Shown here piece by piece: positions 59,115 to 63,691 of a stretch of 64,000 nt of DNA; position 1 is the first letter of the stretch, and every line of letters starts with the position of its first letter. The notes beneath the pieces were generated by a model. The model saw nothing but the letters and a program-made list of their open reading frames with translations, was not told where the DNA came from and ran no database searches. Source of the stretch: Parcubacteria group bacterium (GTDB lineage: Bacteria > Patescibacteriota > Minisyncoccia > Moranbacterales > UBA2206); contig JBAYLE010000004.1 in NCBI GenBank assembly GCA_041664225.1, forward strand, positions 10,640 through 74,639. Reading direction: 5' to 3'. A program made the position numbers and the translations under genes.

Positions 59115-59570
59115 ATGCCAAAATTTATAACCGAAGAGGGTTTGAAAAAAATTAAAGACGAACTTGAAGAAAGAAAAACAACAATAAGACAAAGAATTGC
59201 CAATGCGATCAAAGAAGCCAAGGAACAGGGGGATTTGAGCGAGAACGCGGAATATTCAGAGGCCAAACACCAGCAAGCGGAAAACGAAGCGCGCATCGCG
59301 GAACTTGAGTTTTTGCTCAAAGAATCGACCGTTGTTGCTTTCAATAAATCAGTAGATGTTGTCCAGATGGGCTCCAAAGTCAAGGTGAAATTCAACGGAT
59401 CGGAAATGGAATTTCAAATTGTCGGTTCCAACGAAGCCAACCCGAGCGAAATGAAAATTTCCAACGAGTCCCCGATGGGTAAGGGTTTTATGGGGAAACG
59501 CAAAGATGATGCGGTAGAAATTGAAACTCCCGGCGGGAGGATGAAGTATAAAATCCTGGATGTAAAATAA
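59115..59570 (+). CDS. greA: Transcription elongation factor GreA
   Basis: N-terminal coiled-coil with conserved acidic tip, C-terminal FKBP-like domain. Confidence 0.9.
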   Translation: MPKFITEEGLKKIKDELEERKTTIRQRIANAIKEAKEQGDLSENAEYSEAKHQQAENEARIAELEFLLKESTVVAFNKSVDVVQMGSKVKVKFNGSEMEFQIVGSNEANPSEMKISNESPMGKGFMGKRKDDAVEIETPGGRMKYKILDVK

Positions 59571-59677: not shown

Positions 59678-61561
59678 ATGCGTGAAGATATCCTTCAAAC
59701 TAAGCTGGAAAAATTAGAGCAGATCAAAGAAGCTGGGCTGGACCCCTATCCGGAAAAAACCAAGCGGGATTTTGGCAATGGCGAAGTGCTGGCCAAATTC
59801 GACGAACTTTTGGAAAAAGAAATTACGTTGGTTGGGCGGGTGAAATCATTGCGGCTGATGGGCAATGTGGCATTTGCGCACATTGAGGACGAAACGGGGA
59901 AGATTCAACTGTTTTTGAATAATAAGGGCGCTGAAAATTATAAACTTTTCGTCAATGCGGTAGAAATTGGTGATTTTATTCAAGCATCGGGAAAACTATT
60001 TATCACCAAGGCTGGTGAAAAATCTCTAGAAGTCTCCGCCTGGTCTATTCTTTCCAAAAATATTCGGCCAATTCCGACGGAACATTTCGGTATTAAAGAC
60101 ATCGAAGAAAAGCTGCGTAAGCGTTATCTGGATCTCATGATGAATGAGGAAACACGCGAACTTTTCCACAAGAAAAATATTTTTTGGCAAACGATTCGCA
60201 ACTTCTTAGCGGGCAAAGGATTTTTGGAAGTCCAGACGCCAGTTTTGGAGCATATTCCCGGTGGAGCAGATGCGGAACCGTTTGTGACACATCACAACGC
60301 GCTGGATGCCGATTTCTACCTTCGTATCTCATTAGAGCTACCGCTCAAAAGACTTTTGGTCGGCGGATACGAAAAAGTTTTTGAAATCGGGCGAGTTTTC
60401 CGCAATGAAGGCATGGACAGAGATCATCTCCAGGAATTTGATCACATGGAATTTTACTGGGCGTATTCTGATTTAGAAAAAGGTATGGAATTTATAGAAA
60501 AAATGTATAAAGAGATTGTCGTTAAAGTCTTGGGCGGCCTTGAACATGAATATGAAGGCGAAAAAATAAATTGGGACAAAAAATTTCCAATAGTTGATTA
60601 TTTCACGGAATTCAAGAAAGAAACGAACATAGATTTAAATAAAGAAATTACTATCGAAGAGCTGAAAAAGAAAGCAGATGAGCTGAAAATTAAATATGAA
60701 AAAGGATATGGGAAAGGTCGCATGATTGATACGCTCTACAAAAAAACCGTGCGCCAGAAATTGGTTCAGCCTTGCTTTTTGACTGGACATCCATTGGAAA
60801 TTTCACCTTTGGCTAAAATTGACCCGAATAATCCAAAAAAAGTACTGCGCTTCCAAATTGTCGCTGGACGTAGCGAGCTCTGCAACGCTTTTGGCGAGTT
60901 GAACGATCCAATTGACCAAAGAAAGCGTTTTGAAAACCAGATGCAGGCGCGGGAAGCTGGGGACAAGGAAGCACAGATGATGGACGAAGATTTTGTGGAA
61001 TCTTTGGAGTATGGCATGCCGCCAGCTTTCGGTTTTGGCATGAGCGAGCGATTTTTTTCTTTCATAATGAACAGATCCGTGCGAGAGACAGTAATTTTTC
61101 CGACAGTAAGAGAAGTCACTAATGTTGAAGCAAAAGCAAAAGAAACCAAAATTGCTATGGCTATAGTCAACAAAGGATCGGATATGGAACCATGGCAAGA
61201 AATGAATACCATTGCTAATCTCAATGCCTCTTTTGCCGCCAGGGAAGGAAGGAAAATTTTGTACCAAGACAATATTTTTACCAAGGACAATGAAAAAATC
61301 AAGTTGAATATGCAGCATGCGACAATAATTAAACAAGCTGGATCAAACAAGGAGATACTAGATTTAATAAGATCAGCCAGAGAAAATAAACTCACGGCCG
61401 TTGAGTTCATTCGGGAGATGATAGTAACCTCAGATGACAAAAAAATAATCGATTCCGTTGCTGGAAAAAATGCGGACGAAGTTGAATATCTCGGGGTCTT
61501 AATCTTCGGAAAAAAAGCAGCGGTTGAAGAAATAACGTCTAAATTTGAATTGTATAAATAA
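59678..61561 (+). CDS. lysS: Lysine--tRNA ligase (class II) with ~150-aa C-terminal extension
   Basis: OB-fold N-domain; IPGGADAEPF, FRNEGMDRDHLQEFDHMEFYWAY, motif 3 GFGMSERF; extension 61105-61561 is not part of canonical LysRS. Confidence 0.9.
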   Translation: MREDILQTKLEKLEQIKEAGLDPYPEKTKRDFGNGEVLAKFDELLEKEITLVGRVKSLRLMGNVAFAHIEDETGKIQLFLNNKGAENYKLFVNAVEIGDFIQASGKLFITKAGEKSLEVSAWSILSKNIRPIPTEHFGIKDIEEKLRKRYLDLMMNEETRELFHKKNIFWQTIRNFLAGKGFLEVQTPVLEHIPGGADAEPFVTHHNALDADFYLRISLELPLKRLLVGGYEKVFEIGRVFRNEGMDRDHLQEFDHMEFYWAYSDLEKGMEFIEKMYKEIVVKVLGGLEHEYEGEKINWDKKFPIVDYFTEFKKETNIDLNKEITIEELKKKADELKIKYEKGYGKGRMIDTLYKKTVRQKLVQPCFLTGHPLEISPLAKIDPNNPKKVLRFQIVAGRSELCNAFGELNDPIDQRKRFENQMQAREAGDKEAQMMDEDFVESLEYGMPPAFGFGMSERFFSFIMNRSVRETVIFPTVREVTNVEAKAKETKIAMAIVNKGSDMEPWQEMNTIANLNASFAAREGRKILYQDNIFTKDNEKIKLNMQHATIIKQAGSNKEILDLIRSARENKLTAVEFIREMIVTSDDKKIIDSVAGKNADEVEYLGVLIFGKKAAVEEITSKFELYK

Positions 61562-61580: not shown

Positions 61581-62162
61581 ATGACTAAGCAGCAGATTGA
61601 AAAAATATCCAAGAAAGTCAAAAAGCTTTTCTATAATCCTCCCAAGAAAAAGATGGACGCAGTGGAGAAGAAAATGCTACAAGATTTTTGGGATTTCCAT
61701 ATTGTGCCGGTAGCGAAAGAGAGCCGGAAAATGGCTAAAAAATACAAAGCGGACGAAAATATTGTTTGGCTGGGCGCACTTTTACACGACGTTTCACTCA
61801 CTGAGGATCGTAAAAATCATGATGAAATGAGCGCCAAAAAAGCCTATGAAATGATGATCAAAGAAGGCTTTGACAAAAAAACCGCGCTCAAGGTGAAAAA
61901 TATCGCACTCCGGCATCGTTGCCGCAAATATCATCCCAAGACACTGGAAGAAAAAATAGTAACGACAGCAGATGCCCTCAATCATTTTCTGCCGTCTTTC
62001 TATTTAGGAATCGCCGTTGTTGCTTCTGAAGAATACGCGGTAATGATGCGCAAAAATATTGAGAAATTGGAACGCGACTACCAGTATAAGATTTTTTTCA
62101 AAGACGAACAAAAGCAAGTCGCAAAAAGACTGAAAGATTTCAAGCGTTGGTTCGCGATATAA
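61581..62162 (+). CDS. HD-domain phosphohydrolase
   Basis: H…HD (LLHDVS) metal-binding motif. Confidence 0.7.
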   Translation: MTKQQIEKISKKVKKLFYNPPKKKMDAVEKKMLQDFWDFHIVPVAKESRKMAKKYKADENIVWLGALLHDVSLTEDRKNHDEMSAKKAYEMMIKEGFDKKTALKVKNIALRHRCRKYHPKTLEEKIVTTADALNHFLPSFYLGIAVVASEEYAVMMRKNIEKLERDYQYKIFFKDEQKQVAKRLKDFKRWFAI

Positions 62163-62687: not shown

Positions 62688-63272
62688 ATGAAAAAAATTA
62701 TTTTAGCTACAACTTCACCGTATCGCCAGGAGGCATTCAAAATGCTGGACCTTGATTTTGAAGCGGCGGGAAGCGATATAGACGAAAATTTTGAAGGACG
62801 TCCGGGTCATCCGGAAGAACTGGTTTTGGAATTAGCCAAAAGAAAAGCGCAGTCAGTCGCGAAAAATTACAAAGATGGCATAGTGATCGGCTTTGATTCT
62901 ATTGGATATTTTAATAATGAAATCTTAGAAAAGCCGAAGGACAGAAGTGAGGCCTTTCAGCGGTTGCGAAAATTATCAGGCAATGTTCATAAATTTTACA
63001 CGGGCATCCATTTGATTAATATTTCTGAAAATAAAAATCTTTCCAGCGTGGCAGAAACCGAAATAAAATTACGCGAGCTTACTGACGCGGAAATCAATAA
63101 ATATCTCGATCAGGATCCCAAATTTACTACCTATGCGATTGGGTTTGATCCGTTATGCCACTATAGTTCCTCATTTACCGAGAGCATCACGGGAAGTTAT
63201 AATAATTATTTGCGCGGCATCCCGCTGGAAACAATTGTTGGATTGTTAAAAGAGGCCGGATATGATTTATGA
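62688..63272 (+). CDS. maf: Maf-like nucleoside-triphosphate pyrophosphatase
   Basis: N-terminal ILATTSPYRQEAFKMLDL… resembles Maf LASxSPRR. Confidence 0.8.
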   Translation: MKKIILATTSPYRQEAFKMLDLDFEAAGSDIDENFEGRPGHPEELVLELAKRKAQSVAKNYKDGIVIGFDSIGYFNNEILEKPKDRSEAFQRLRKLSGNVHKFYTGIHLINISENKNLSSVAETEIKLRELTDAEINKYLDQDPKFTTYAIGFDPLCHYSSSFTESITGSYNNYLRGIPLETIVGLLKEAGYDL

Positions 63273-63691
63273 GAATAGTAATTTGTGGCAGTTCAAAATT
63301 CAGGCACGAAATGGTCGAATACAAAGAGAGGCTCGAAAAATTGGGGCATGATGTTTTTGTGCATGAACACTACATAAAATCAGTGCGAGGAGAAATGCCG
63401 GAACTGATGGAAAGGATTGGAAGAGAACATGCTGTTCTGAAAAGAGAACAAAATTATATTAGGTTATATCATGATGAGATTAAAAATAGCGACGCAGTTT
63501 TGATTTTAAATTTTGACAAAAACGGAATTAAAAACTATATCGGCGGAAACACTCTAATGGAAATCGGCTTCGCGCACGTGAATGACAAAAAGGTATTTTT
63601 GCTTAATCCGATTCCGGATGTTTCTTATGTCGATGAAATCAAAGCGATGGCCGATGTAATTTTAGACGGCGACTTAAAAAAAATTGTATGA
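63269..63691 (+). CDS. Hypothetical; nucleoside 2-deoxyribosyltransferase-like fold suspected
   Basis: MRIVICGSSKF… Rossmann-like start; weak. Confidence 0.4.
   Translation: MRIVICGSSKFRHEMVEYKERLEKLGHDVFVHEHYIKSVRGEMPELMERIGREHAVLKREQNYIRLYHDEIKNSDAVLILNFDKNGIKNYIGGNTLMEIGFAHVNDKKVFLLNPIPDVSYVDEIKAMADVILDGDLKKIV

Follow-up and report, generated by a model that had tools for sequence, protein, structure and literature searches.

A lysyl-tRNA synthetase of Patescibacteria with a C-terminal DUF2000 domain that may serve as a built-in tRNA(Lys) clean-up module

Results and Discussion

The fused lysS gene

The window analysed here, a stretch of 64,000 nucleotides from contig JBAYLE010000004.1 of a Parcubacteria group bacterium (assembly GCA_041664225.1, positions 10,640 to 74,639 of the forward strand), contains a lysS gene whose product is a class II lysyl-tRNA synthetase (LysRS) that continues at its C-terminus into an additional domain of the family DUF2000. 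The open reading frame (ORF) and its parts are as follows, the positions being those of the window.

59678..61561, + strand: complete lysS fusion ORF of 627 aa, stop codon included, encoding class II LysRS, linker and DUF2000 domain
59822..60052, + strand: OB-fold anticodon-binding domain of LysRS, aa 49-125 (Pfam tRNA_anti-codon, E 1.2e-14)
60101..61108, + strand: class II catalytic core of LysRS, aa 142-477 (Pfam tRNA-synt_2, E 2e-64)
61115..61147, + strand: Lys-rich, probably flexible linker, aa 480-490, VTNVEAKAKET, with low model confidence (pLDDT, predicted local distance difference test)
61148..61558, + strand: DUF2000 domain with predicted PTH2 fold, aa 491-627 (Pfam PF09391, AlphaFold2, Foldseek, hhalign)

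An earlier inspection of the DNA letters alone (the sequence-only reading) had let LysRS proper end near RETVIFPTVRE (aa 469-479, from nt 61082). This agrees with the curated NCBIfam lysine--tRNA ligase models, which match aa 3-479 (PRK00484 with 531.9 bits at a cut-off of 468, TIGR00499 with 482.4 bits at a cut-off of 427.6), as well as with the relatives lacking the extension, in which LysRS stops 1-3 residues past the equivalent of aa 479. As judged from these matches, residues 1-479 are a complete class II LysRS. The extra C-terminal piece of about 150 aa described in the same reading is indeed present with 148 aa (aa 480-627, nt 61115-61558 plus the stop codon), the only and trivial discrepancy being its supposed start at 61105, which lies about three codons too early and not in frame. 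All peptides quoted at that time are found in the 627-aa protein, in which KIAMAIV begins at aa 491 (nt 61148) and the C-terminal end reads SKFELYK. An identical protein is already recorded on a 75-kb ENA metagenome contig and at NCBI as 'MAG: lysine--tRNA ligase [Parcubacteria group bacterium]'.

Family and fold of the extension

Residues 501-627 are recognised far above chance level by Pfam DUF2000 (PF09391), with E 3.5e-18 (66.3 bits for the whole protein and 70.4 bits for the domain alone, the gathering cut-off being 25 bits) and the match spans profile positions 9-133 of 133. Although a structure was solved in 2006, the family is without an assigned function. Using the single sequence as query against the PDB sequences, the DUF2000 protein Atu0240 from Agrobacterium tumefaciens (2GAX) was obtained as a weak match (E 0.075), and a profile built from 63 diverse DUF2000 domains matches the same entry with E 6e-17. 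The AlphaFold2 model of aa 480-627, calculated with an alignment of 69 sequences, is an alpha/beta domain with a mean pLDDT of 84 and a predicted template modelling score (pTM) of 0.77, in which about ten N-terminal residues are disordered (the first eight with pLDDT <50). When the model was compared with the PDB by Foldseek, 2GAX was found at rank 1 (E 4.4e-10, TM 0.77/0.83, root-mean-square deviation 2.3 Å, 138 columns) and ranks 2-13 were all peptidyl-tRNA hydrolases of the PTH2 type (E 7e-5 to 6e-4, probability 1.0, TM (target) 0.58-0.71), including human Bit1 (1Q7S), AF2095 (3ERJ), TA0108 (1RLK), MJ0051 (2ZV3), PH1539 (1WN2) and the enzyme from S. solfataricus (1XTY). Two weaker PTH2 chains follow in the tail (E 0.02 and 0.06) and the best match unrelated to PTH2 is no better than E 0.39. 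When hhalign was run between the DUF2000 alignment and five PTH2 sequences from the PDB, a probability of 88.9% (E 2.4e-6) was obtained, and the DUF2000 profile retrieves no PTH2 chains from the PDB in an HMM-sequence search.

By sequence profile and predicted structure, the extension is a genuine member of DUF2000 and a distant structural relative of PTH2. Both resemblances had been proposed from the letters alone; the DUF2000 match above the gathering score and that of the family profile to 2GAX carry the first of them and the Foldseek and hhalign results the second, so that profile search and structure prediction yielded a significant match and a folded domain, and neither a missing match nor a disordered or helical tail was the outcome. 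From the motifs named there, G606...G611 aligns with 'GIGP' of PTH2, whereas 'K-G-x-x-M' is merely a loose counterpart of its MGKGK loop. DTD2 was considered as a further relative and dropped: it is not among the Foldseek matches, and which type of PTH has the DTD2 fold could not be confirmed.

Atu0240 has the same family and fold as the window domain and shares its signature of Asn, Met, Asp and Thr, but it is a free-standing protein of 135 aa with an identity of ~18%, whereas the window domain is covalently attached to LysRS. PTH2 (archaeal Pth2, human PTRH2/Bit1) has the same alpha/beta fold with detectable profile-profile homology; these proteins are free-standing, or membrane-anchored in eukaryotes, and are not known to be fused to a synthetase. 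The combination itself is already recorded in databases, with precomputed Pfam strings PF01336, PF00152, PF09391 for proteins named merely 'lysine--tRNA ligase'. No paper was found on DUF2000, PF09391 or Atu0240, nor one linking PTH2 with LysRS fusions.

Distribution of the fusion

The same fusion was sought in related genomes and found in at least 80 species-representative loci (one genome per species) from bacteria of the candidate phyla radiation (CPR) and DPANN archaea. LysRS and DUF2000 are colinear and in one frame in essentially all of them, the exceptions being two frameshifted genes and several genes from Gracilibacteria/Absconditabacteria with an in-frame TGA, which is expected from the genetic code of these organisms. 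The bacterial hosts are CPR/Patescibacteria (Parcu-, Pacei-, Moranii-, Doudna-, Peregrini-, Gracili- and Absconditabacteria and others) and the archaeal hosts are Woese-, Nano- and Aenigmarchaeota. When 1.84 billion cluster representatives were searched exhaustively with HMMER, 265 clusters of DUF2000 type were obtained, and in at least 37 of the best 150 (clustered at 50% identity) LysRS sequence lies upstream of the domain. From this recurrence among sequences the fusion is real, ancient and evolutionarily conserved. In a neighbour-joining (NJ) tree of the synthetase cores 15 of the 17 archaeal copies form one clade and two are located elsewhere among the bacteria, which at the level of an NJ tree suggests at least two transfers of the whole fusion gene between the domains of life.

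Free-standing domains of the fused type in CPR bacteria, which would be a sign of action in trans, were suspected and rejected, as P0159 is a contig-edge fragment and P0005 (locus L090) stems from a gene split by a run of N. At L090 (122-2100) this run lies inside the LysRS-DUF2000 gene, which was called as a 540-aa protein and a 119-aa 'DUF2000 protein' (P0005), and fragments of this kind account for the short DUF2000 entries that bear a LysRS annotation. Several binned genomes have titles that look taxonomically implausible for this gene (Methanosarcinales for L010, L025, L027 and L053, Gammaproteobacteria for L026 and 'uncultured Candidatus Saccharibacteria' for many); these bins are probably mislabelled, their LysRS clustering with DPANN or CPR copies. 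The gene surroundings of free-standing DUF2000 proteins showed no consistent tRNA-related context; a Dtd gene lies 2.4 kb away at one locus and an ACT-domain gene upstream at others.

Additional domains have been joined to the LysRS-DUF2000 architecture in some lineages. An HDIG domain of ~195 aa, here called HD-A, is fused behind DUF2000 in L007, L025, L037, P0022, P0009 and P0011 and in the fragment P0094, and it directly adjoins the fusion gene in L082 (4408-4995), L018 (3973-4560), L020 (1196-1783), L058 (4470-5069) and L040 (1867-2472). This association is seen in CPR bacteria as well as in DPANN archaea, and the window has no HD-A. Among solved structures HD-A comes closest to the YqeK hydrolases of diadenosine tetraphosphate (Ap4A), which match weakly (8WMY with E 1e-5, 8JJA with E 9e-5), and NCBIfam recognises a generic HDIG domain only. 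An AlaX-type editing domain (tRNA-synt_2c C-terminus and tRNA_SAD) is appended to LysRS-DUF2000 in P0025 and in the following ORF, and in P0063 a B3/4 domain is inserted between LysRS and DUF2000.

L052, 2567-5185: LysRS-DUF2000-AlaX triple fusion, ORF of 873 aa

AlaX and B3/4 are aminoacyl-tRNA deacylase folds, B3/4 being the editing fold of PheRS-beta, and therefore the C-terminus of LysRS-DUF2000 has repeatedly collected modules acting on the tRNA 3' end.

Conserved positions of the domain

Conservation was determined over 158 DUF2000 domains, fused and free-standing. The most conserved positions, numbered according to the window protein, are Asn510 (99-100%), His514 (99%), Met581 (99%), Thr620 (97%), Gly611 (95%) and Asp587 (93%); among the fused domains Asp587 is conserved to 98%. 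For Thr620 the values range over 97-100%. Four of the corresponding codons are listed below.

61205..61207, + strand: codon of Asn510, invariant across the 158 DUF2000 domains
61217..61219, + strand: codon AAT of Asn514; His in 99% of DUF2000, aligned with PTH2 His25; the same Asn in the sister lineage (protein P0276, locus L082)
61436..61438, + strand: codon of Asp587, aligned with PTH2 Asp86
61535..61537, + strand: codon of Thr620, aligned with Thr of the C-terminal 'ITG' of PTH2

According to hhalign, position 514 pairs with the invariant His25 of PTH2, Asp587 with Asp86, Gly611 with the glycine of GIGP and Thr620 with the Thr of ITG. DUF2000 conserves equivalents of His25, Asp86, the GIGP glycine and the C-terminal Thr-x-x-x-x-Leu, the window copy being without the His. 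It lacks the TQxxPG motif and the Lys18-bearing GKGK loop of PTH2, an insertion of ~20 residues is present and the TM values reach only 0.5-0.7. The GxT that follows Asp86 in PTH2 (DAGxT motif) is likewise not conserved, only the Asp itself being kept. According to these alignments DUF2000 retains part of the PTH2 site and replaces the rest. The fused subfamily shows Trp506, Asn544 and Lys597 as additional conserved residues. A near-invariant polar set of this kind is more in keeping with an active site than with a simple spacer.

The window protein keeps the family-wide residues Asn510, Met581, Asp587, Gly611 and Thr620. Of the 92 other fused sequences 91 have His at position 514, as do all stand-alone domains, and Asn occurs only in P0276. 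Asn514 is a natural variant of the putative active site shared by the window and this sister protein. In the lineage of the window the predicted chemistry may be weakened or altered by the exchange of His514 for Asn, with the domain still being maintained.

Presence, absence and selection

Among the best 120 LysRS matches to the window protein 97 are without the domain (~481 aa), and these non-fused cores are also the nearest to the core of the window (80-84% identity), the fused relatives reaching 75% at most. In the NJ tree the non-fused genes form a single 100-leaf clade within which the window gene, P0276 and one further fused gene are nested, and this topology would require at least four events of gain or loss. 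The gene order DsbA-like, GreA, LysRS, HD, PAP2 is common to the window, to the fused sister L082 and to the non-fused L083. On the related Parcubacteria contig L083 (4001-6051) LysRS is 482 aa long and stops 18 nt before the HD gene. Window and L083 form a clean polymorphism in which the DUF2000 segment is either present or absent.

L082, 2494-4401: fused lysS gene of the sister lineage (P0276), with Asn514

Between L082 and the window the neighbouring gene products are 83-96% identical and the DUF2000 parts 89%, both with Asn514, whereas the LysRS cores show only 74.5% identity. On the nucleotide level the identity is 0.87-0.91 for the flanks and 0.80-0.91 for flanking genes and DUF2000 part taken together, but 0.71 for the core (59678-61114 against L082 2494-3930), for which the synonymous divergence (dS) is saturated. 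The synthetase core thus appears to have been exchanged by recombination with the 3' domain retained, an event that echoes the domain swapping of aminoacyl-tRNA synthetases (aaRS) described for CPR bacteria (PMC5370408). Codon analysis of the same pair gave a ratio of non-synonymous to synonymous divergence (dN/dS) of 0.10 for the domain (dS 0.47) and of 0.03-0.08 for the flanking genes. Judged by these codon comparisons, the Asn514 variant is real and its domain is under purifying selection.

Proposed function and alternatives

As to the function of the domain, we tentatively favour a tethered module for aberrant acyl-tRNA(Lys), which it would bind and probably also hydrolyse, as suggested by sequence comparison and structural models. 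What the data establish are the architecture, the fold, the family membership, the conservation, the wide distribution, the purifying selection and the fusion context. In the AlphaFold2 model of the full-length protein both parts are folded (pTM 0.57), aa 474-488 have a pLDDT <50 and no confident inter-domain geometry is seen; on this model the domain is probably flexibly tethered via a linker of ~11-15 residues, which would be compatible with a CCA end shuttling between two sites. The binding of the tRNA 3' end, the ester hydrolysis and the substrates that we infer would then proceed in three steps: the tethered domain would take the acylated CCA end of tRNA(Lys), it would remove by ester hydrolysis either peptidyl or N-acyl groups on Lys-tRNA(Lys) or mis-acylated or chemically damaged Lys-tRNA(Lys), and the free tRNA(Lys) would thereby become available directly to the synthetase that is part of the same (dimeric) molecule, close to its active site. 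Class II LysRS is a homodimer. PTH2 also works as a homodimer (PMC11994314). A rationale for a specificity for lysine comes from E. coli, in which a deficiency of Pth causes death via starvation for Lys-tRNA(Lys), according to the work of Heurgue-Hamard (1996) as cited in PMC11994314 (ref. 5 therein).

Other synthetases offer parallels for such a design. The editing domains of aaRS (AlaRS/AlaX, ThrRS N2, ProRS INS/YbaK, PheRS-beta B3/4) are likewise modules of a hydrolase fold linked to a synthetase; their folds differ from that of DUF2000, and AlaX and B3/4 occur on the LysRS-DUF2000 backbone elsewhere, as described above. Class II LysRS is described as editing before transfer, and we know of no LysRS with a post-transfer editing domain. 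In LysX, the mycobacterial MprF-LysRS, a domain that consumes Lys-tRNA is fused to a class II LysRS and uses its tRNA product, but the appended part is a transmembrane lysyl-phosphatidylglycerol synthase and not of PTH2 type. An extra domain on LysRS also has a precedent within the CPR, as the LysRS of Microgenomates bears a C-terminal domain similar to PheRS-B2 (Mukai et al. 2017, PMC5370408), which is of OB fold and not of PTH2 type. By analogy, the idea of a tRNA-ester hydrolase is strengthened by the finding of AlaX, B3/4 and HDIG domains on the same architecture.

Several observations weigh against a hydrolase. The Pfam PTH2 model (PF01981) gives no match to the domain at E values up to 10, which places the domain outside the PTH2 family proper. 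We take Lys18 of the GKGK loop to be a catalytic residue of PTH2, and Lys18 and Asp86 are said to have been found essential in the Pth2 of S. solfataricus by Fromant et al. in 2005; this loop has no counterpart in DUF2000, K14-G15-K16 of the PTH2 alignment facing P505-W506-Q507, and no conserved Lys is present where it sits. The window protein is also without the near-invariant His514 of helix 1, for which it has Asn, and Atu0240 has Phe at this position; as the window, its sister and Atu0240 all do without it, His514 is not indispensable to whatever maintains the domain. The missing Lys loop and Asn514 together weaken the case for ester hydrolysis. With a predicted isoelectric point of about 6.5-6.8 the domain is near neutral and thus unlike a general binder of the tRNA body; this charge argues against non-specific binding of that kind and would suit a small pocket that accommodates the acylated terminal adenosine. 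The domain is moreover accessory and dispensable, because the closest cores are without it in the same synteny. The DUF2000 family is also not exclusively linked to tRNA, since in P0137 (568 aa) the domain is fused to a fatty-acid desaturase, the sole non-tRNA fusion partner seen. Finally, to our knowledge no activity has been reported for any DUF2000 protein.

The best surviving alternative, although somewhat unlikely, is a non-catalytic accessory domain of PTH2 fold that binds the acceptor end of (Lys-)tRNA(Lys) or a partner protein or adds a second dimer contact; binding of the acceptor end would then aid tRNA capture, product hand-off or protection of the ester. It would be in line with the absent catalytic Lys loop, with the exchange of His514 for Asn in window and sister at a dN/dS of still 0.10, with Phe in Atu0240 and with the loss of the domain in close relatives whose gene neighbourhood is visibly unchanged. 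On the other hand, the invariant polar residues Asn510, Asp587 and Thr620 are common to fused and free-standing members, the charge is near neutral and not basic, and AlaX and B3/4, true deacylase folds, as further fusion partners hint at an enzymatic theme.

It appears improbable that the domain acts, together with a YqeK-like HDIG phosphohydrolase, on Ap4A, lysyl-adenylate or related adenine nucleotides that LysRS produces, and not on tRNA. LysRS is a major producer of Ap4A, the nearest solved relatives of HD-A are Ap4A hydrolases, and HD-A is fused in at least six proteins plus the fragment P0094 and adjacent at five loci in bacteria and archaea. However, HD-A is found at only ~10% of the loci, the window not being one of them, its likeness to YqeK is weak and generic for HDIG domains, and acylated tRNA 3' ends are, as far as we know, the only ligands known for the PTH2 fold.

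We would give even less credit to DUF2000 as a general acyl-ester hydrolase or transferase for which Lys-tRNA(Lys) would, in the fusion, serve as donor to a non-ribosomal acceptor, for instance a lipid or envelope precursor, in the manner of LysX. The desaturase fusion P0137 and the precedent of a LysRS joined to a domain consuming Lys-tRNA speak for it, the NCBIfam LysX model aligning to the core, but the fusion has no membrane segment, its remaining partners are tRNA-editing folds, the desaturase example is a single one and we know of no transferase with a PTH2 fold.

An artefact of assembly or gene calling, or a decaying remnant, for which some short 'stand-alone' matches of the fused type might have been taken as a sign, is effectively excluded by the recurrence of the single-frame architecture in ~80 independent assemblies and the selection signature (dN/dS 0.10), the predicted fold being confident and the short matches being contig-edge fragments or splits at N runs.

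Gene neighbourhood

Besides the fused lysS, two genes next to it are relevant to the comparison of the loci.

59115..59570, + strand: greA (Pfam GreA_GreB), conserved upstream neighbour of fused lysS in CPR bacteria
61581..62162, + strand: HD-domain gene, here called HD-B (Pfam HD), 19 nt downstream of lysS

The greA gene lies upstream of the fused lysS in 40 of 81 loci. A functional link of HD-B to DUF2000 had been suspected from the triple fusion P0022 and was rejected, HD-B belonging to a different family from the fused HD-A (E 3e-4 to 0.02); as an HD-B orthologue also follows the non-fused LysRS in L083, it is not specifically tied to DUF2000. In the same operon-like string a 140-aa ORF without Pfam match is located at 63269-63691, and a copy with 47% identity is found in L030 (4609-5022), where it lies directly downstream of the LysRS-DUF2000 gene. 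A small DsrC-like gene is located between greA and lysS in the sister lineages, namely in L082 (2042-2371) and in the contig of P0285, but not at this place in the window.

All ORFs of at least 193 aa in the window are on the + strand, with the exception of five that overlap longer + strand ORFs, and the G+C content is 34-46%. Neither a tRNA gene nor an Rfam family at gathering threshold was found in the 64 kb. Strand bias, G+C content and this absence fit a segment of a CPR genome. A tblastn search with E. coli Pth and with human and Sulfolobus PTH2 gave no match in the window or the flanks of the loci, a result that is uninformative because the window covers only 64 kb of the genome.

Conclusion

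The fusion of DUF2000 to LysRS across two superphyla of ultra-small, host-dependent prokaryotes gives this family its first strong functional context, namely the acylated 3' end of tRNA(Lys), and LysRS-DUF2000 may, on the basis of these comparisons, be a synthetase with a built-in clean-up module for tRNA(Lys). That synthetases carry appended hydrolytic domains is a known principle, and the fusion now offers concrete candidate substrates and a testable function for an orphan family. It also ties in with the older finding that E. coli deficient in Pth dies from starvation for Lys-tRNA(Lys). The presence/absence polymorphism and the natural His-to-Asn variant are built-in experimental controls for this purpose.

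A wider proposal, more speculative than the favoured function and rather unlikely to hold in all its parts, is that DUF2000 would be an unrecognised branch of tRNA-ester hydrolases which forms with LysRS a recycling or proofreading centre for tRNA(Lys); it would thereby be the first domain on a LysRS to act in quality control after transfer. In some lineages AlaX, B3/4 or HDIG domains would extend this centre into a multi-enzyme hub for the tRNA 3' end, and its exchange between CPR bacteria and DPANN archaea would possibly compensate for reduced repertoires of stand-alone Pth or editing enzymes in these tiny genomes. If the favoured function is confirmed, translation quality control would gain a new family of enzymes, with a possible first post-transfer module on LysRS, and the fusion would illustrate how modular aaRS genes are put together and exchanged among CPR bacteria and DPANN archaea.

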